A DNA stretch of 64,000 nt from Candidatus Bathyarchaeia archaeon. Lineage in GTDB: Archaea > Thermoproteota > Bathyarchaeia > Bathyarchaeales > Bathycorpusculaceae. Below are positions 5,076-26,265 of the stretch, piece by piece (position 1 is the stretch's first letter; every line of letters begins with the position of its first letter). The notes beneath the pieces were generated by a model that ran no database searches, was not told where the DNA came from, and was given only the letters and a program-made list of their open reading frames with translations. The translations under genes were made by a program, and so were the position numbers. The stretch spans positions 64,001-128,000 of the forward strand of contig JBEKBM010000001.1 of assembly GCA_050015395.1 (NCBI GenBank), written 5' to 3'.

Positions 5076-6554
5076 TTACCCTTTTACTACTGCGAGTGGA
5101 ACAAGCCTTGCAACTTTAGTGGCAATTCCAATCTTGTCGCTGACGTCGGCAACCACATCCACATTCTTATACGCTGCGTCGGCTTCCTCAGCCAAAACAG
5201 AAATGCTTGCCGCACGAACAACAATGCCCCGCTTCTCCAAAGCCGCTTTTACGTCTCCACCCCAATACTGCCGTTTTGCCGCTGACCGGCTCATCATTCT
5301 GCCCGCGCCATGCGCGGTTGAACCAAAAGTTAAATCCATAGCTTTCTTCGAACCCACCAGAACCCATGAGCTTGTGCCCATGCTGCCTGGAATAAGCACT
5401 GGTTGCCCTTCACTACGGAAATCAGCTGGAACATCAGGGTGCCCTGCTGGAAAAGCGCGTGTTGCTCCTTTACGGTGAACCCAAACTTTCTTTTCTCCAC
5501 CATCAATCTTGTGAGTTTCTATCTTGGCAATGTTGTGCGCTACATCGTAAACGAGTTTTAAACCAAATTTTTCAGGCGGCTCATGGAAAACTTGCTGAAA
5601 ACTTTGCCTGACCCAATGCATGATTGCATGTCTATTAGAAAAAGCATAGTTAACAGCGCAAGCCATAGCTTGGAAGTAATCACCTGCTTCATTGCTGCTT
5701 CCAGGTGCACATGCTAATTCGCGGTCAGGTAACGTTATCCTATACTTTTGCACTGCATGCTCCATAACTCTCAGATAATCGGAGCAGACTTGGTGACCAT
5801 AGCCTCTTGAACCGCAATGAATCATGACTGTAACTTGGCCTTCTTGCGTAATTCCAAAAGCCTTAGCTGTCTTAGGATTATAGATTTTATCTACCTTTTG
5901 TATTTCTAAGAAGTGGTTTCCCGAACCCAAGGTGCCAATCTGAGTTAATCCTCTGCTCTTAGCCGTCGATGACACCTTATCTGGGTCTGCATTAGCCATG
6001 CAACCGCTTTCTTCACAGTGCTCAGCATCCTCAGGCCAACCAAACCCGCGTTTAATAAGCCACGGCACACCCTCAACTACCAAACGGTCTAAGTCAGCAG
6101 CGGAAACGGTTAAGTCTTTTCGTCGGCTTCCAAGCCCAGAAGGAACATTACGGAAAATGGTTTCAGCTAATGGTGCAAGTTTGGGTCGGATCTCTTTTTC
6201 TGTAAGCGTTGTTGCTAAGAGGCGGACACCACAGTTAATATCATAGCCTACGCCGCCAGGGCTGATAACGCCATTATCGTAGTCGGTTGCGGCAACGCCG
6301 CCTATGGGAAAACCGTAACCTTCATGCCCATCGGGCAATGTTACTGCATACTTGTAAATTCCGGGCAACTGCGTTACATTTGTGCATTGCCAAAGAGTCC
6401 GATCAGTCTTCATCTTTCCTAAAAGAGCTTCGTTTGCAAAAATCATACCTGGCACCCTCATGCCCGGTTTATATGTTGGGATACGCCAAGTGTACTCGTT
6501 TATTTTCTCGAGGGGAACTTCTTCTGGCGCTTTTCTGCTTTCACTTTCGCCCAA
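5076..6554 (-). CDS. rtcB: tRNA-splicing RNA ligase RtcB
   Basis: PDGHEGYGFPIGGV, GYDINCG, GTLGSGNHFLE, HRKGAT, PGSMG and STAHGAGR motifs. Confidence 0.97.
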   Translation of the reverse strand: MGESESRKAPEEVPLEKINEYTWRIPTYKPGMRVPGMIFANEALLGKMKTDRTLWQCTNVTQLPGIYKYAVTLPDGHEGYGFPIGGVAATDYDNGVISPGGVGYDINCGVRLLATTLTEKEIRPKLAPLAETIFRNVPSGLGSRRKDLTVSAADLDRLVVEGVPWLIKRGFGWPEDAEHCEESGCMANADPDKVSSTAKSRGLTQIGTLGSGNHFLEIQKVDKIYNPKTAKAFGITQEGQVTVMIHCGSRGYGHQVCSDYLRVMEHAVQKYRITLPDRELACAPGSSNEAGDYFQAMACAVNYAFSNRHAIMHWVRQSFQQVFHEPPEKFGLKLVYDVAHNIAKIETHKIDGGEKKVWVHRKGATRAFPAGHPDVPADFRSEGQPVLIPGSMGTSSWVLVGSKKAMDLTFGSTAHGAGRMMSRSAAKRQYWGGDVKAALEKRGIVVRAASISVLAEEADAAYKNVDVVADVSDKIGIATKVARLVPLAVVKG

Positions 6555-6598
6555 AACTTTTCACCTTAAAAACAAAGTGGAATGATACTATAAAACGT

Positions 6599-7519
6599 TT
6601 ATGAACCCTCATTAGCCTGAATTTGCTTGGCATAGTCGATAAAGCCTTGAACGCTGTTTCCAAGAGCGGTCTTAGAGTAAATTCGATGCGATTTTAAGTA
6701 ATCCGCCAGTTGATGCATAACCTTGTCCTCAGCAATTATTCTATCACGCACCTCCTCTAAACTTTGGTTTTTCCTGACGCCTTCTTCCGCGATTTTTGCC
6801 CATAATTGAAGCTGCACCTTGTAATCTTTCAGGCGTTGAACTCCATTTGAGACTTTTCCGAAATGGCTATAATACAAAACTGTCGGTTTAAGACTGATTA
6901 ATTTATCTAATGAAGCTAATGCCGCGCCGAAATGGAAGGGAGGCGGCGTAGTGGGCATTACCACGTCGAACTCTGGGAAATACGTGCCAGCAGCATCCCC
7001 TGGGAAAACTCCGCCGTTTAACGATTCGTGGAAGCTAAGGCTGTGTGAGGCGTGGCCAAGCGTTTCAATAACCGTCAGTTTTGCGCCATCATCCAAGTCA
7101 AAGGAGCCCTCAGTGACAGGAATTATTCGTTCTTTCGGAACAGGTTCAGGCTTACCGAAAATTTCGCTTACATACCCAAGAACCGCTTGAGCAGATGACC
7201 AAAGCCATTCAGGATTAATCAGATGCGGCATTCCCCTCGGGTGGACGATGACTTTTGCGTTAGGCAGAAACTTTAGCAATGTGCCGGCGCCGCCACCGTG
7301 ATCTAAATGAACATGCGTAATTGCAACGTATTCAACATCTTCAAATCTGATGTTGAGTTCTTTTAAGCCAGAAACAAGATTGGGTACTGAAGAAGTTGGA
7401 CCAGACTCCACAAGGATAGTTTTAGTGCATTTTATTATGTAGCTGCAAATGAGGTTTTTGAATCCTCCAGTTTCTAACTCGATTAGAAACAGGTTTTTCC
7501 CGATTTCTTTTGTGTGCAA
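6599..7519 (-). CDS. MBL-fold metallo-hydrolase
   Basis: THVHLDHGGG (HxHxDH), GHA.H, GDAAG and SHFG motifs. Confidence 0.9.
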   Translation of the reverse strand: MHTKEIGKNLFLIELETGGFKNLICSYIIKCTKTILVESGPTSSVPNLVSGLKELNIRFEDVEYVAITHVHLDHGGGAGTLLKFLPNAKVIVHPRGMPHLINPEWLWSSAQAVLGYVSEIFGKPEPVPKERIIPVTEGSFDLDDGAKLTVIETLGHASHSLSFHESLNGGVFPGDAAGTYFPEFDVVMPTTPPPFHFGAALASLDKLISLKPTVLYYSHFGKVSNGVQRLKDYKVQLQLWAKIAEEGVRKNQSLEEVRDRIIAEDKVMHQLADYLKSHRIYSKTALGNSVQGFIDYAKQIQANEGS

Positions 7520-10221: not shown

Positions 10222-10327
10222 ATATTATTTCTCATATTAGAATTCTCTTAAAAATCACACTTTTAAAATCATTTGAAACGGTAATCTTAAAAATCCAACC
10301 GCATTATTAGCTATAGAGTGAACAAAA

Positions 10328-11206
10328 TTGGAACAGCAACAATTCAAAAAAATCGGAATTTTTAAGTGCGGCAACATTGGGACATCACCAAATCTTGAAC
10401 TTCTCCTCGATGAATTGGCTGACCGAAAAGACATCAAAGTTCGAACAGTCACTACAGGATCAAAAATGAACCTCGAAGACGTTGAAGAAGCATTCCCCAA
10501 AATCTTAGAATTCAACCCAGATATTTTGGTCATGATATCGCCTAATACGGCCTTGCCGGGACCGGCGAAGGCTAGAGAGCAGATTTCAAAAAGCGGTCGG
10601 CCGGGCATTGTGATCTCCGATTTTCCAGCAAAACGGGCAAAAGCAGAAATGGAAAGTCAAGGATTAGGCTACATAATCATCACCGGTGACCCTCTAATCG
10701 GAGCCAGAAAAGAATTCTTGGATCCCATTGAGATGGCGATATTCAACTCAAACGTCAACAAAATACTTGCGATCACTGGCGTTTACAGGATAGTTCAACA
10801 AGAAATTGATAAAGTGATTTATTCGCTTGAAACTGGCCAGACTCCAACTCTACCCAGATTGGTAATAGACATGAATGCCATACGAGACAATTCAACTTTC
10901 AACAATCCGTATGCAAAAGCGAAAGCAATGGCTGCCTATGGCATGGCGGAGAAAATTGCAGAGGTAGACACTCAAGCATGCTTCATGGAGAAAGAGAGTG
11001 AAAAGTACATTCCCCTAGTCGCCTGTGCGCATGAGATAGCTCAAGCATCTGCGAGATTAGCTGAAGAAGCTCGTGAAATTGAGAAATACAATGACACTTT
11101 GCTTAGGAAACCTCACGCGAAAGACGGCAGGCAGAAGGTCAAGACCAGACTGATGCTCGCGCCGACTTTTCCCGAAGAATTCTATGAAAAAAGCGGTTTA
11201 CAGTAG
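10328..11206 (+). CDS. mtd: F420-dependent methylene-H4MPT dehydrogenase
   Basis: KIGIFKCGNIGTS, LLDELADRKDI, GSKM, SPN..LPGP..ARE, D.LIGARKEFLDP.EMA.FN, NPYAKAKA and R.PH motifs. Confidence 0.93.
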   Translation: MEQQQFKKIGIFKCGNIGTSPNLELLLDELADRKDIKVRTVTTGSKMNLEDVEEAFPKILEFNPDILVMISPNTALPGPAKAREQISKSGRPGIVISDFPAKRAKAEMESQGLGYIIITGDPLIGARKEFLDPIEMAIFNSNVNKILAITGVYRIVQQEIDKVIYSLETGQTPTLPRLVIDMNAIRDNSTFNNPYAKAKAMAAYGMAEKIAEVDTQACFMEKESEKYIPLVACAHEIAQASARLAEEAREIEKYNDTLLRKPHAKDGRQKVKTRLMLAPTFPEEFYEKSGLQ

Positions 11207-11309
11207 TCAAACTGTATATACTGTATATACCCATATATAACGTATTTCGACTAAGTATATATTTTTCACTGCTATTCATGTATGACCAATAATAAAGAGG
11301 CAAAAAAAT

Positions 11310-13037
11310 ATGAAAGTACTTGAAGTAAAACCGTTGGAAAACAAGAACTTAACTGTAATGATACAGGAAAAAGAATACAATGAGCCTTTTCAGCTTTTCG
11401 AAAAATCATCATCCGCAAAACTAAATGTTCTCCAAGCGCTCCTAAAACCATCAATCGGCTTCTACAAATTTGTCGAGAATGTGGTTGCCAAAGTAAATAT
11501 AGACTTCGTCACGGAAGAGCTAGGCAATCGATCTCAAAAAGAATTCTTCGAAGATAACATCTTAGCCGACGTGTTCCAAAAAAGCAGCATTCCTTTCTTC
11601 CCCGTTGACATTGACAGCGACGCCAAAACCTATCTTGAATCTGCTTTTGACAAAAAAACAGCATTGAGAGACAACATAATCAAGAACATAGAAAACCTAA
11701 ACAAACAAAAAAGCAGCGATTCCACAGAGAGAGACTACCTCGTTGCATACGGACAGAGTTTACAATCCGAAATAGAGGAACAAGAACACGAAGTCAATTT
11801 CTCAATAAGAGAAAGCTGGATCGTCATGGATATCATGGAGCACGCAAGAGAAATCAAGAACAAAGACGAGATAACATGCCTGCACATTTGCAGCCCCGAA
11901 CACGTGACAGGAATTAAGCAACTGCTAGAATCGGTCAACGCCAACGTCGAAATCGCGAAACTCTCCAAAAAGATAATCTCAACTCAGGTTGAAACTCCCT
12001 CTTCACAGGAAATAGAAAACTGGCTCCAATCAATGCAGATCCAGGTTAAGCCCGTTATCGGAAAAGCAGTTGAAAACGCACCTTACCTGCTGTTCTACCT
12101 CGACACCGACGTTAAAGCAAGCCCATTTGACATCTGCATGGCCTACGATGCCGGATACAACGCTGTCATTCCTTACGAGAACATCATTCCAGAAGACGCC
12201 AAAACGATAGTGCTAGATGCTTTACTCTCCAGAGGACCAAAGGCCGTTAAGCACACGGTCTTTCTGATCGGAGGGAAAAACGCTGAAAGAGCCGAACAAG
12301 TCTTTGAAGCTGCGAAAGATTCGATGTTTCCCCCATTCAAAACAAGTATAATCGTGGACCCTGCTGGTGCATATACAACTGCCGCTGCAATGGTTGCAAA
12401 AGCTGAAAATGCACTCGAGGCAAGCAAGCTCGGCGAATTGAAAACCAAAACTGTCGCTATCCTCGGCACAGGTGCTGTAGGACAAATAGCTGCGGTTCTC
12501 TTGGCTAAAATAGGATGCAATGTAATGATTGCCAGCCTTAATCCGAAACGCGTTGACGGAAAAGAACACGCTGAGGGCATAGCTAAACTTCTAGCCAAGG
12601 ATCACGGCGTTCAAGTCGAAGGCATCTTCGCTCCAACCCCAGCTTCGAAAATTGAAATCATAAAGAAAGCCGATGTAGTGATGTGCGCAGGAGTAAGAGG
12701 CGTTCGCATCATAGACAAAGAAATGCTGAATGAAGTCAAAACCATGAAGGTCCTAATTGACATAAACGCAGTACCACCATTCGGAGTCGAAGGAATAGAA
12801 TTAAAAGATGACATGCGAGAAATGCTGCCTGGAATCTTCACAATCGGAGCACTCACAGTTGGAGATCTAAAACACAAACTTGAAAAAGAGATTCTACGCG
12901 ACGCACGATCCAACGGAAAAGAAGTATACAACTACAACGGTGATCTGCCACTTGCACGAAAACTGTTGCAGAAAGAGCTATTCCCCACCAAGTTGACGCT
13001 GACTTTGAGCTATCCCCCTTCAAAAAATCCTAAGTAG
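11310..13037 (+). CDS. Fusion of an N-terminal TraB/ChaN-like domain and an NAD(P)-dependent methylene-H4MPT dehydrogenase (MtdA/MtdB family)
   Basis: The C-terminal ~315 aa carry SPFD..MAYDAG, SRGP, FLIGG, DPAGAYTTAAAMVA, GTGAVG and DINAVPPFGVEG. The N-terminal ~215 aa carry FVTEEL, PVDI, RESWIV and HICSPEHVTGI..LL. Confidence 0.85.
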   Translation: MKVLEVKPLENKNLTVMIQEKEYNEPFQLFEKSSSAKLNVLQALLKPSIGFYKFVENVVAKVNIDFVTEELGNRSQKEFFEDNILADVFQKSSIPFFPVDIDSDAKTYLESAFDKKTALRDNIIKNIENLNKQKSSDSTERDYLVAYGQSLQSEIEEQEHEVNFSIRESWIVMDIMEHAREIKNKDEITCLHICSPEHVTGIKQLLESVNANVEIAKLSKKIISTQVETPSSQEIENWLQSMQIQVKPVIGKAVENAPYLLFYLDTDVKASPFDICMAYDAGYNAVIPYENIIPEDAKTIVLDALLSRGPKAVKHTVFLIGGKNAERAEQVFEAAKDSMFPPFKTSIIVDPAGAYTTAAAMVAKAENALEASKLGELKTKTVAILGTGAVGQIAAVLLAKIGCNVMIASLNPKRVDGKEHAEGIAKLLAKDHGVQVEGIFAPTPASKIEIIKKADVVMCAGVRGVRIIDKEMLNEVKTMKVLIDINAVPPFGVEGIELKDDMREMLPGIFTIGALTVGDLKHKLEKEILRDARSNGKEVYNYNGDLPLARKLLQKELFPTKLTLTLSYPPSKNPK

Positions 13038-14058
13038 ATACACTAAACGCGCGATTTATCGCGATCTTAGCTATGTTTGCGGCACAGTCCGCAATTCTTT
13101 TTATGTCATCTCTGACGGAGCAGATTGCACAAACCAATTGCTCATTTTTTTGTTTTTCTGCGAAGGCTTTAGCGGCTATTTCCTGATCCAACGTCGCTAT
13201 TTCTTCTCGTTGCCTAAGTATCTCAACTGATTTCGAGACATCCTTCGAAAAGAAAGTGTCCACCGCCTTTACGTATAAATTCACAGCTTCATTTCCTGCA
13301 ATGAACATTAGCTCCAATACGTTCTCCGGAATTTTCAGTTGACTCCCGTCTAGCATTATTACGTGCCGCGCTACGTCCGCTGAATTGTCTGCCACGTCCC
13401 GAATCATGTAAACCAGAGTCTGATAATCCATACATTCCAACGGGTCGATACGAAACTCATTCGCCAAAACGGAGTCTTGTGCAGCATTGCGGAGCACTCG
13501 GATAAGGAAATAGGCGAAATGGTACACATCATCGTCAAGAGAGAAAACAGCTTTTGCCAATGCTATGTCTTTGTTTTTCAGCGATTTAATCGCATCCTCC
13601 CCCATTGACTGAGAGATCAGATGCATCCTCTGTACAGTTTGCTTTAGATCCGCCTTAGTTTCGTCCATTAAGGTTTGAACGAAAACACCCCTAGAGCTAG
13701 CCTCCATAATTCTCATGTATAACATTCCCGCGGTCTTGCGGATTGCCTTTATCTGCGGGACGGAAAAAACTTTTTCTGAGATAAGGGTGATTCCGCTGTA
13801 TCCGTTTAAGTAGCACCCCACTATCTTCATCGTAATCAGCAGCTCGTCTTCATTCGGGTCAATGCGAAGCGTTGTCTCTTTTGTCTCTGTCTTTTTCTTC
13901 GCGCCAGGATAAATAACCAAAGAGCGGTCGCGTTGAATGGCAAATGAGACAACATCGCCTTTCTTCAATTCGTTTAGCTGCATCCAATTTTTGGGAAGAG
14001 AAATTACCAAAGAAGATCTGCCAAGCGACATAACCCTTCGTTCCATACTGTCCCTCAA
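13030..14058 (-). CDS. AbrB-PhoU family phosphate uptake/transcriptional regulator
   Basis: RRVMSLGRSSLVISLPKNW AbrB domain, YLNGY and two PhoU repeats (LDDDV, RIADCAANIA). Confidence 0.88.
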   Translation of the reverse strand: MRDSMERRVMSLGRSSLVISLPKNWMQLNELKKGDVVSFAIQRDRSLVIYPGAKKKTETKETTLRIDPNEDELLITMKIVGCYLNGYSGITLISEKVFSVPQIKAIRKTAGMLYMRIMEASSRGVFVQTLMDETKADLKQTVQRMHLISQSMGEDAIKSLKNKDIALAKAVFSLDDDVYHFAYFLIRVLRNAAQDSVLANEFRIDPLECMDYQTLVYMIRDVADNSADVARHVIMLDGSQLKIPENVLELMFIAGNEAVNLYVKAVDTFFSKDVSKSVEILRQREEIATLDQEIAAKAFAEKQKNEQLVCAICSVRDDIKRIADCAANIAKIAINRAFSVST

Positions 14059-24847: not shown

Positions 24848-25462
24848 ATGCCCTATAAATTTACTTTCGATCTGTCAAAGGTCCCGCGTTTCTTCTTCAC
24901 TGAAATTGCGACGGTGAGTTACCAGAAGGGCATGCATAGAACATTAATTAAAAAATTACAAGAAATTATTTTAAGGTTTAGAATACAAGAAGCCACTGGA
25001 CTAAACCTTTCTGATTCCTTAGTTTTGCTTCAGGATCTAATTGATTTACAAGCAGTAAACATGATAGAGCGAGGCAAATTCTTGCAGACCAAGAAAAGAG
25101 CCCTTTTTCTTTCTCACTGCACAAGGAAGTACTTAGATAGCCGCTGTAAAGCAGTTTTTGACTCAAATATCCCGTCTTACTCGTGCTCCCACTGTTCAGA
25201 AGACTGCTTAGTTAATCAGTCTGACCGCTTAGCTCGAAAAAAGGGATATGACGTTTACGTGGTGCCAGGCGGTTCCTGCATTCCCAAGATTCTGAAGAAT
25301 ACACATTACGAAGGCGTGGTGGGAATTGCGTGTGGAGAAGAAATTAAAGTGTTGGGGCCACTTTTGAACAGTATGGATGTGGCTGGGCAAGCTATACCGT
25401 TGCTAAAGAATGGCTGTGCAAACACCATTTTTAATATGGAAACGCTCGTAAAAGTTCTCTAG
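24848..25462 (+). CDS. DUF116 family protein (copy A)
   Basis: RALFLSHC, C..C..C...C, VPGGS, GVVGIAC, PL...GC..T. Confidence 0.85.
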   Translation: MPYKFTFDLSKVPRFFFTEIATVSYQKGMHRTLIKKLQEIILRFRIQEATGLNLSDSLVLLQDLIDLQAVNMIERGKFLQTKKRALFLSHCTRKYLDSRCKAVFDSNIPSYSCSHCSEDCLVNQSDRLARKKGYDVYVVPGGSCIPKILKNTHYEGVVGIACGEEIKVLGPLLNSMDVAGQAIPLLKNGCANTIFNMETLVKVL

Positions 25463-25650: not shown

Positions 25651-26265
25651 ATGCCCTATAAGTTTACTTTCGACATTTCAAAGGCGCCCCAACACTTTTT
25701 CATAGAACTCGCCATTGTCGGCAACCAAATGGGCATGCAGAAGGTTTTTGAGAAAACCTTACAGGAATTAATCAGAAAATTCAGAATTCAAGAAGTTACA
25801 GAACTTAACATCCAAGATGCCGTGGTGCTAATTCAAGACCTCCTCAAGATGCAAACTTTGAATTTGACACAAAAACAGGAATTTCTGCAGACCAAAAAAA
25901 GGGCTCTGTTCCTTCCCCACTGCTGTAGGAAATACATGGATAGTCAATGCCACGCCGTTTTTGAGCCGAGCTTGACCTCTTACGTTTGTGCTCATTGCTC
26001 ACCCGACTGTTTTGTCAACAAGGCGGAACACATTGCCAGAGAGAAAGGGTACGACGTTTACGTTTTATCTGGGGGTTCTTGTATGCCTAATATTTTGAAG
26101 CAGAAGAAGTACGAGGGTGTTGTGGGCGTTGCATGCGGTCCAGAAGTGATTATGTCTGGCGAAAAGTTGAGCAGTATGGGCATGGCTTGGCAATCTGTTC
26201 CGTTGCTAAAGAACGGCTGTGCCAATACATTTTTCAACATTGAAACGCTGATAAAAACGCTGTAA
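25651..26265 (+). CDS. DUF116 family protein (copy B, tandem paralog)
   Basis: Same length (204 aa) and motifs as copy A, and both begin MPYKFTFD. Confidence 0.85.
   Translation: MPYKFTFDISKAPQHFFIELAIVGNQMGMQKVFEKTLQELIRKFRIQEVTELNIQDAVVLIQDLLKMQTLNLTQKQEFLQTKKRALFLPHCCRKYMDSQCHAVFEPSLTSYVCAHCSPDCFVNKAEHIAREKGYDVYVLSGGSCMPNILKQKKYEGVVGVACGPEVIMSGEKLSSMGMAWQSVPLLKNGCANTFFNIETLIKTL

Follow-up and report, generated by a model that had tools for sequence, protein, structure and literature searches.

In the present study, we analyzed a 64-kb stretch of DNA (the window) from a Bathyarchaeia archaeon of peat, in which two genes for dehydrogenases predicted to act on the same one-carbon (C1) step, between methenyl- and methylene-tetrahydromethanopterin (H4MPT), follow each other on the same strand (Table 1). 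The first, mtd, starts with TTG. Its product matches the Pfam family MTD (PF01993) at residues 8-279 (E-value 1.1e-118, 396 bits, cut-off 25) and the NCBIfam equivalog NF002162 ('F420-dependent methylenetetrahydromethanopterin dehydrogenase') with 390 bits (cut-off 297), and is predicted to be a canonical F420-dependent Mtd. The second encodes a protein of 575 amino acids (aa) that consists of an MtdA-like dehydrogenase and, ahead of it, a domain that we call the N-domain. Both genes look intact, each is present in a single copy in the genome, and 103 bases lie between them. We found that the two-domain enzyme accompanies Mtd and does not replace it, and that the N-domain and the MtdA-like part, whether fused or encoded by neighbouring genes, are a predicted functional unit that is widespread in two phyla, in Bathyarchaeia and in Asgard archaea.

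The initial annotation had described the pair as two unrelated families for one C1 step, adjacent and co-oriented, and this was borne out; the Mtd and MtdA-like families are unrelated in sequence, because they match different Pfam families (PF01993 and PF09176). Its assignment of the second gene to MtdA or MtdB stands for residues 259-552, but the 258-aa N-terminal domain of the 575-aa protein had been overlooked. Mpt_N (PF09176) was detected at residues 272-352 (E-value 1.2e-25, 89.9 bits, cut-off 27). Residues 259-552 align with the solved structures of MtdA from Methylorubrum/Methylobacterium extorquens (6tlk, 6tge, and 1lu9; E-value about 1e-35), and the alignment spans the whole 288-aa bacterial enzyme, with 34% identity in the Foldseek rows. 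A full-length AlphaFold2 model from a shallow alignment, with a predicted local distance difference test score (pLDDT) of 54.7, served only to confirm this match. With twice the length of MtdA or MtdB, the protein is not a stand-alone enzyme of about 290 aa, and among the 120 best clusters the full-length form (572-611 aa, 76-97% identity over the whole length) was found in 119, the remaining one being a 488-aa piece. As to a homology with Fno, the protein gave no signal other than a weak PF03807 match (18.9 bits) under the cut-off, and a Pfam scan of the protein found no THF_DHG_CYH (FolD-type) domain. The current annotation, 'methylene-tetrahydromethanopterin dehydrogenase', does not reveal the N-domain.

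An acidic residue after the second strand of the Rossmann fold is the usual mark of NAD enzymes. Because this site reads IASLNPKR in the 575-aa protein, with no acidic residue and with K413 and R414, the protein is probably a nicotinamide-dependent MtdA-type dehydrogenase with NADP as its cofactor.

Residues 1-258 had no match in Pfam or NCBIfam at an E-value of 0.01 or less. A search with them in 1.84 billion representative proteins gave 75 matches at E-values of 1e-3 or less, 15 of them at 1e-30 or less. When 38 of these 75 representatives were scanned with Pfam, no family above its cut-off covered the N-domain in any of them, and Mpt_N was above its cut-off in 10; the N-domain stands ahead of the dehydrogenase in nine of the 10 and, in reversed order, after it in P0152. 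The close homologs of the 575-aa protein are labelled Candidatus Bathyarchaeota or Bathyarchaeia. As judged from these searches, the N-domain is a conserved domain family without any model. A search of the source genome found no stand-alone N-domain paralog.

Species-representative genomes were searched with five stand-alone N-domain proteins, and 66 loci were obtained. Wherever a title specifies a taxon, it is an Asgard one (Promethearchaeota/-ia, Thor-, Hermod-, Hod-, Odin-, Hel-, or Jordarchaea); the ten remaining titles read just "uncultured archaeon". The order in these loci is a stand-alone N-domain gene (N1, about 205-220 aa), a second N-domain (N2), and the MtdA-like dehydrogenase; N2 occurs in two forms, joined with the dehydrogenase in one protein (about 560 aa) or encoded by its own gene (about 245 aa) ahead of a dehydrogenase gene (about 335 aa). 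Of the 66 loci, 63 have an MtdA-like open reading frame (ORF) directly downstream in the same orientation, and three stop at a contig edge. Since the N-domain and the MtdA-like part are fused in Bathyarchaeia, fused or adjacent in these 63 Asgard loci, and joined in reversed order in P0152, gene order argues that they form a unit. Five Asgard loci (L061, L062, L064, L067, and L071; L-numbers denote extracted loci) have tandem double modules. In the four where the motif was read (L061, L064, L067, and L071), the paired dehydrogenases differ at the nucleotide site, VETW(E/D) against SRRE, a difference which suggests that an NAD-type copy stands next to an NADP-type one. Near Asgard modules, small ORFs (74-95 aa) showed a weak likeness (18-34 bits) to the profile of a helical hairpin of the N-domain.

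The relation of the two-domain enzyme to Mtd was seen in a sample of 151 Bathyarchaeia genomes, the source genome included (G-numbers denote sampled genomes, G000 being the window's own). Mtd was detected in 98 of them, Mpt_N in 32, and the N-domain in 13. The 11 genomes with both the N-domain and Mpt_N (G000, G015, G020, G029, G038, G053, G067, G097, G110, G130, and G145) all have Mtd. Mtd is also present in the two genomes with the N-domain and no detected Mpt_N, namely G062, where the gene is a fragment at a contig end, and G005, where it is a stand-alone gene. Mtd was found in none of the 21 genomes with Mpt_N and no N-domain. In 19 of these 21, the MtdA-like proteins are open frames of 296-350 aa, and the remaining two genomes, G063 and G107, encode a fusion of the MtdA-like part with a true Mer (TIGR03555, 446.9 bits, cut-off 348.7). 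Since the short forms occur only in Bathyarchaeia genomes where Mtd was not found, they appear to replace Mtd. The MtdA-Mer fusions (639-643 aa, Mpt_N at residues 20-100) put two consecutive H4MPT steps into one polypeptide; each is followed by an FrhB-like gene, and Mtd was not found in either genome.

We also made a quick tree of 75 rows, comprising eight Bathyarchaeia loci, ten representatives, P0152, the two Mer fusions, and random picks of 16 fused and 10 split Asgard ORFs and 28 short proteins. One clade, with 100% support in the Shimodaira-Hasegawa-like approximate likelihood ratio test (SH-aLRT), unites the short forms with the Mer fusions; opposite it stand the N-associated forms, with a few N-less proteins nested among them. 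The N-less members of the N-associated clade come only from G137 and, as one of its copies, from G148. In the latter genome, which has neither Mtd nor the N-domain, two MtdA-like genes stand back to back, one of the short clade and the other the N-less member, with the acidic motif VAEPNP. The short clade has the motif TSRK at the nucleotide site, resembling CGRK of MtdA. The family and genus of the window themselves include both states, with the short form and no Mtd in G094, G102, G127, and G133. We rejected the idea that the short forms in this family are proteins that lost the N-domain, as they are placed in the separate short clade.

The same association was seen in Asgard archaea. In a sample of 151 genomes of the phylum, of unstated completeness, Mtd was detected in 98, Mpt_N in 46, and the N-domain in 41. 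Mtd is present in 38 of the 40 genomes with both the N-domain and Mpt_N (the exceptions being G195 and G166), in two of the six with Mpt_N and no N-domain (G218 and G234), and in 59 of the 110 without the N-domain. A further 28 module-bearing Asgard genomes include 25 with Mtd. The module is kept almost only alongside Mtd, and thus it complements Mtd rather than replacing it. Since the N-domain form is found almost only in genomes with Mtd, such cells would possess two dehydrogenases of different cofactor for one C1 couple.

In methanogens, Hmd and Mtd share the methenyl/methylene-H4MPT couple, with a net transfer from H2 to F420 that neither enzyme performs alone (PMC12350162). To have two such dehydrogenases in one cell is the precondition for a coupled reaction of this kind, and the co-occurrence is consistent with hydride exchange, without being proof of it. 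The simplest and most likely explanation of the pairing, already proposed in the initial annotation, is by analogy an F420/NAD(P) hydride cycle via Mtd and the two-domain enzyme through methenyl/methylene-H4MPT, a tentative reading to which we give somewhat less than an even chance. In this scheme, for which we infer the use of cofactors and pterins, the coupling of the cycle, and the role of the N-domain, the H4MPT-bound C1 couple would be the shared substrate of both enzymes, each working in either direction, and hydride would pass between F420H2 and NAD(P)+ by way of catalytic amounts of methenyl/methylene-H4MPT. The net outcome would be a reaction like that of Fno, reached in a way analogous to Hmd and Mtd of methanogens; it would supply the cell with NADPH at the cost of F420H2, or run the other way. 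Nfn-like genes behind the fusion gene in G029 and G053 point to NADP-linked redox balancing. As an accessory, the N-domain would probably serve in assembly, in binding a partner, or in regulation, and would be required only in the presence of Mtd. A role in assembly or regulation is suggested by its association with Mtd, by the paired copies in Asgard archaea, and by Hdr and Nfn neighbours; the N-domain is probably not the redox site. The genome of the window (2.59 Mb in 42 contigs, 98.9% complete, 3.3% contamination) contains genes for Mch, CdhC, CofE, and SHMT, two for Ftr, and two for FrhB-like proteins. The presence of the Ftr, Mch, CdhC, CofE, and FrhB-like genes shows that H4MPT and F420 chemistry is present.

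The distribution of Fno (TIGR01915) bears on this cycle. In the source genome, the best match, at another locus, reached 24.1 bits against a cut-off of 149.8, and Fno was thus not found. Fno was above the cut-off in 38 of the 151 Bathyarchaeia genomes (one of the 13 with the N-domain against 37 of the 138 others), and in none of the 28 module-bearing Asgard genomes. On the whole, the distribution leans towards the module standing in for Fno, without establishing it. An anticorrelation between Fno and the module in Bathyarchaeia was considered and set aside, the above counts being too weak and G038 carrying both.

Several observations weigh against the hydride cycle. With regard to Fno, G038, which belongs to the window's genus and has the same gene pair, also has Fno (170 bits), and thus the pair is not simply a substitute for it; Fno was not found in 113 of the 151 Bathyarchaeia genomes, whatever else they carry, and full-length Fno-like relatives below the threshold (67-109 bits) exist in 18 of the 28 Asgard genomes. 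With regard to Mtd, 85 of the 98 Mtd-bearing Bathyarchaeia do without the module, and the two genes are only partly neighbours. Only four of the 11 Bathyarchaeia genomes (G000, G038, G145, and G130) have Mtd immediately upstream and in the same orientation; in G097, it is 1 kb away on the opposite strand with a PhoU gene in between, and in the remaining six, it is on another contig. Among the 66 Asgard loci, Mtd lies within 6 kb in only five. The pair is hence not unique to the source genome, recurring in the same order and strand in three others. The co-occurrence counts include related genomes and are not phylogenetically independent. Furthermore, a simple cycle gives no reason for the extra 258-aa domain, nor does it account for the second, paralogous N-domain copy in Asgard archaea. 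The Asgard dehydrogenases mostly have the acidic motif VETWE at the nucleotide site, and a second Asgard paralog has TSRRE. The nicotinamide cofactor therefore probably varies across the family.

An alternative possibility could be that the two enzymes do separate jobs and form no cycle. Mtd would serve the F420-linked main C1 route, and the two-domain enzyme would be a dedicated NAD(P)-linked dehydrogenase kept apart by regulation, for example for producing NADPH from serine- or formate-derived C1 units or for an anabolic branch. Methylotrophic bacteria keep several methylene-H4MPT dehydrogenases of differing cofactor, which speaks for such a division. In the source genome, SHMT, Ftr, and Mch are present, and neither MTHFR nor a true Mer was found (the best match to Mer had 72 bits against the cut-off of 348.7, and the best Mer-like protein scored highest with TIGR03560, at 221.7 bits, under the cut-off of 231.4); therefore, the H4MPT branch may be limited to the part between formyl and methylene. 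A dedicated neighbour of the PhoU/AbrB type also suggests a control of its own. However, reversible enzymes that share soluble substrates in one cytoplasm would exchange hydride unless kept apart, and the near-obligate co-occurrence of the N-domain with Mtd would be left unexplained. We consider separate jobs rather unlikely.

The PhoU/AbrB-type gene is convergent with the two-domain gene and overlaps its 3' end by eight bases. A PhoU gene, mostly with an AbrB/MazE-type N-terminus, adjoins the N-domain gene in G000, G005, G020, G053, G097, G130, and G145, and was seen in seven of the 10 Bathyarchaeia loci looked at; it may be a regulator of the N-domain genes. In G005, a 100% complete genome with Mtd in which Mpt_N was not found, the PhoU gene adjoins a stand-alone N-domain gene of 229 aa.

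The N-domain itself leaves room for another function. An AlphaFold2 model of the domain alone (41 sequences; pLDDT 90.4, predicted template modelling score 0.87) has a parallel-sheet alpha/beta core with an inserted helical hairpin of about 80 residues (about residues 103-181). In at least 93% of 80 fused or N2 sequences, E20, E22, E69, D100, R167, E168, and H198 are kept, and W170 is likewise among the conserved residues of this group; the stand-alone N1 proteins (72 sequences) lack most of these and keep a different, lysine-rich set. Foldseek found nothing in the PDB at an E-value of 1e-3 or less for the model, and the profile of the domain against solved structures gave a coiled coil of ClpB as its best match (E-value 0.094). 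In VIA-align, whose match lists are dominated by the long helical hairpin, the whole-domain matches included ChaN (2g5g; Z 8.2, 149 residues), EreC (6xcs; Z 6.3-6.6, 159 residues at Z 6.3), the C-terminal region of the Pasteurella toxin (2ebf; Z 6.9, 140 residues), CbiL (Z 8.7, 121 residues), and a complex IV subunit of Tetrahymena (Z 9.2, 143 residues). Many unrelated proteins were listed with comparable Z values. The nearest named Atlas clusters lie at 0.82 and include TraB/GumN. The folds of ChaN, erythromycin esterase, and TraB/GumN have been grouped into one 'Tiki' superfamily. PF01963 (TraB/PrgY/GumN) had no match in the 575-aa protein at an E-value of 0.01 or less, and none in a six-frame search of the source genome and 12 relatives. 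The model thus weakly suggests a ChaN/Ere-like fold, which is a lead only, because such Z values are rated common by the tool. We also ruled out that the N-domain is a diverged Mtd (hhalign probability 0.6%).

If the domain were catalytic, with a hydrolase-type site, the protein would be bifunctional like FolD, for example a dehydrogenase with a new methenyl cyclohydrolase or formyl hydrolase. The conserved carboxylates, arginine, and histidine of the fused and N2 proteins would suit such a site, as in the model they appear to follow strand ends, the usual position of an alpha/beta active site, and the matches to EreC and ChaN, together with the failure to find FolD in the genome, point the same way. 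However, these matches are in the range just described as common, no residue is invariant over the whole N-domain family, the N1 paralog lacks the conserved set, Mch is present in the genome, and no hydrolase family was matched in sequence. A catalytic N-domain seems quite improbable to us.

The N-domain could alternatively be an adaptor that physically ties the dehydrogenase to Mtd, and in Asgard archaea, whose paired N1 and N2 copies are found next to Hdr/Mvh genes, maybe also to Hdr. Such a dedicated H4MPT-mediated F420H2:NAD(P)+ transhydrogenase complex would replace Fno throughout Asgard archaea and in some of the Bathyarchaeia. We think this unlikely; if true, cofactors would be coupled by a machine of a new class, with a bound C1 carrier at its centre. 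A complex prediction for Mtd with the N-domain gave scores of 0.23 and 0.09 (mark 0.32), which speak neither for nor against binding.

Another possibility is a larger electron-bifurcating complex of the Hdr/Mvh or Nfn type, to which the module would contribute the arm for the substrate or cofactor, with the N-domains as docking adaptors. Among the 66 Asgard loci, an HdrA-like gene is present in 51 (and in 43 of those 51 loci whose upstream sequence extends for 3 kb or more), MvhD in 38, [NiFe]-hydrogenase subunits in 25-27, HdrBC-like genes in 21, and FrhB-like genes in 18. In Bathyarchaeia, a stand-alone N-domain paralog precedes the fusion gene in G029 and G053, an arrangement like that of Asgard archaea, and genes for NfnA-like (FAD_binding_6/NAD_binding_1/DHODB Fe-S) and NfnB-like (Fer4_20 and Pyr_redox_2) proteins directly follow it on the same strand. 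However, the 64-kb window has no Hdr, hydrogenase, or Nfn gene, the neighbours in Bathyarchaeia are PhoU and Mtd, and neighbourhood alone does not demonstrate binding; we regard the bifurcating complex as distinctly unlikely.

The initial annotation had also offered the alternative that an MtdA-type enzyme bridges the tetrahydrofolate (H4F) and H4MPT pools, and the MtdA of methylotrophic bacteria does react with both pterins, according to a published study (PMC9012536). This alternative gained no support. Neither FolD (PF02882) nor MTHFR (PF02219) was found in the 98.9%-complete genome, and in G063 a related MtdA-like protein includes a true Mer, a fusion by which the archaeal family is tied to H4MPT. 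Pool bridging is thus very improbable.

The question of co-transcription was approached through RNA libraries. The stretch is present in 18 DNA and six RNA-library runs, from peat or wetland, and four of the RNA runs were aligned; contigs of such libraries are no proof of transcription and do not give transcript ends. Single contigs cross the whole two-domain gene in X19 (11303-13043) and X20 (11319-13030), about 97.5% identical to the window, and X21 and X22 cover the gene in pieces; mtd is partly covered in X19 and X20. In the four peat runs, no contig was found on 10909-11302 and none joins both genes, which speaks neither for nor against co-transcription. Contigs end at 10327 (X19 and X20), one base before the TTG of mtd, and around the ATG of the fusion gene, at 11303/11304 (X19 and X22) and 11319 (X20 and X21). 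All of these ends except the two of X20 continue into about 21 adapter-like letters. The ends give a weak hint of separate, nearly leaderless transcripts. The spacer between the genes has several TATA-like runs, and AAGAGG 8-13 bases ahead of the ATG, and we read it as a putative promoter.

The other genes of the window are housekeeping genes (a lysine/diaminopimelate operon, succinyl-CoA ligase, tRNA ligases, iron-sulfur assembly, and glycosyltransferases), with genes for TFIIB, RtcB, archease, and L7Ae also within it and a tandem of DUF116 paralogs. An Rfam scan of the window gave zero matches. Elsewhere in the genome, a 98-aa open frame whose match to the Mch model (85 bits) is confined to its final 70 positions is divergent from the full-length mch gene.

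Table 1. Coordinates of the genes and features discussed (window positions unless a genome, contig, or locus is named)
Feature	Position	Strand	Basis
mtd, F420-dependent methylene-H4MPT dehydrogenase, 292 aa	10328..11206	+	PF01993, NF002162
AT-rich spacer, 103 bases	11207..11309	+	sequence reading
Two-domain MtdA-like gene, 575 aa, ATG start	11310..13037	+	ORF reading, PF09176
N-domain, residues 1-258	11310..12083	+	conserved, no family model
MtdA-like domain, residues 259-575 (Mpt_N and Rossmann fold with GTGAVG)	12084..13037	+	PF09176, MtdA structures
PhoU + AbrB/MazE-type DNA-binding protein	13030..14058	-	PF01895 and PF04014
Tandem DUF116 paralogs, 204 aa each	24848-25462 and 25651-26265	+	
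Full-length mch, source genome	C27:36191-37150	-	
98-aa frame like the end of Mch	G000:C27:37310-37522	+	Mch model
PhoU neighbours elsewhere	L012:7738-8745; L015:3745-4818; L017:6224-7237; L018:4572-5591; L019:111-1127; L102:4825-5901		
Stand-alone N-domain gene, 229 aa	L102:6004-6693 (G005)		
Nfn-like genes	L014:1212-3444 (G029); L015:7429-9658 (G053)		
MtdA-Mer fusions	L016:5233-7152 (G063); L020:4520-6451 (G107)		
Back-to-back MtdA-like genes	L099:5214-6218 and 6255-7241 (G148)	- and +	
N1-N2-MtdA-like module beside HdrA/MvhD, with [NiFe]-hydrogenase subunits or HdrBC-like genes	L022-L087; e.g. L061:904-5494, L034:108-5028		
Small hairpin-like ORFs	L042-L044, L047, L050, L051, L053, L056, L058, L059 at about 10.7-11.2 kb; L065:313-558; L066:4229-4450		

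Every metabolic reconstruction of uncultured Bathyarchaeia and Asgard archaea leaves open how their F420, NAD(P), and ferredoxin pools are linked; for Bathyarchaeia, the origin of F420H2 'remains unclear' according to one paper (PMC7886697). For such a link, a conserved second methenyl/methylene-H4MPT dehydrogenase that occurs almost only alongside Mtd offers a concrete candidate that can be tested. Our results also make it possible to separate two kinds of archaeal MtdA-like proteins that are lumped together in pathway surveys, the short kind that replaces Mtd and the N-domain kind that accompanies it. We also define a domain family without a model, which occurs in 41 Asgard and 13 Bathyarchaeia genomes from samples of 151 each. 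Literature searches, subscription journals aside, brought up no account of the N-domain, of its fusion, or of a pairing with Mtd; for MtdA-type enzymes in Bathyarchaeia or Asgard archaea, they yielded a remark in PMC7886697 and nothing else.

Compared with MtdA of M. extorquens (1lu9, 6tlk, and 6tge), the 575-aa protein is alike in Mpt_N, in the GxGxxG Rossmann motif, and in the basic residues after the second strand, and differs in being archaeal, in its extra 258-aa N-terminal domain, and in standing alongside an F420-dependent Mtd. The short MtdA-like proteins of Bathyarchaeia (about 300 aa) belong to the same family and the same class of organisms, with about 40% identity; however, they form a separate clade and occur without a detected Mtd (0 of 21 genomes), whereas the 575-aa protein has the N-domain and is accompanied by Mtd. 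With the Hmd and Mtd of methanogens, the system shares the use of two dehydrogenases with different hydride partners, NAD(P) being proposed here in place of H2. Fno is a single small enzyme that transfers hydride directly. The net reaction proposed for the pair is the same as that of Fno, to which there is no homology.

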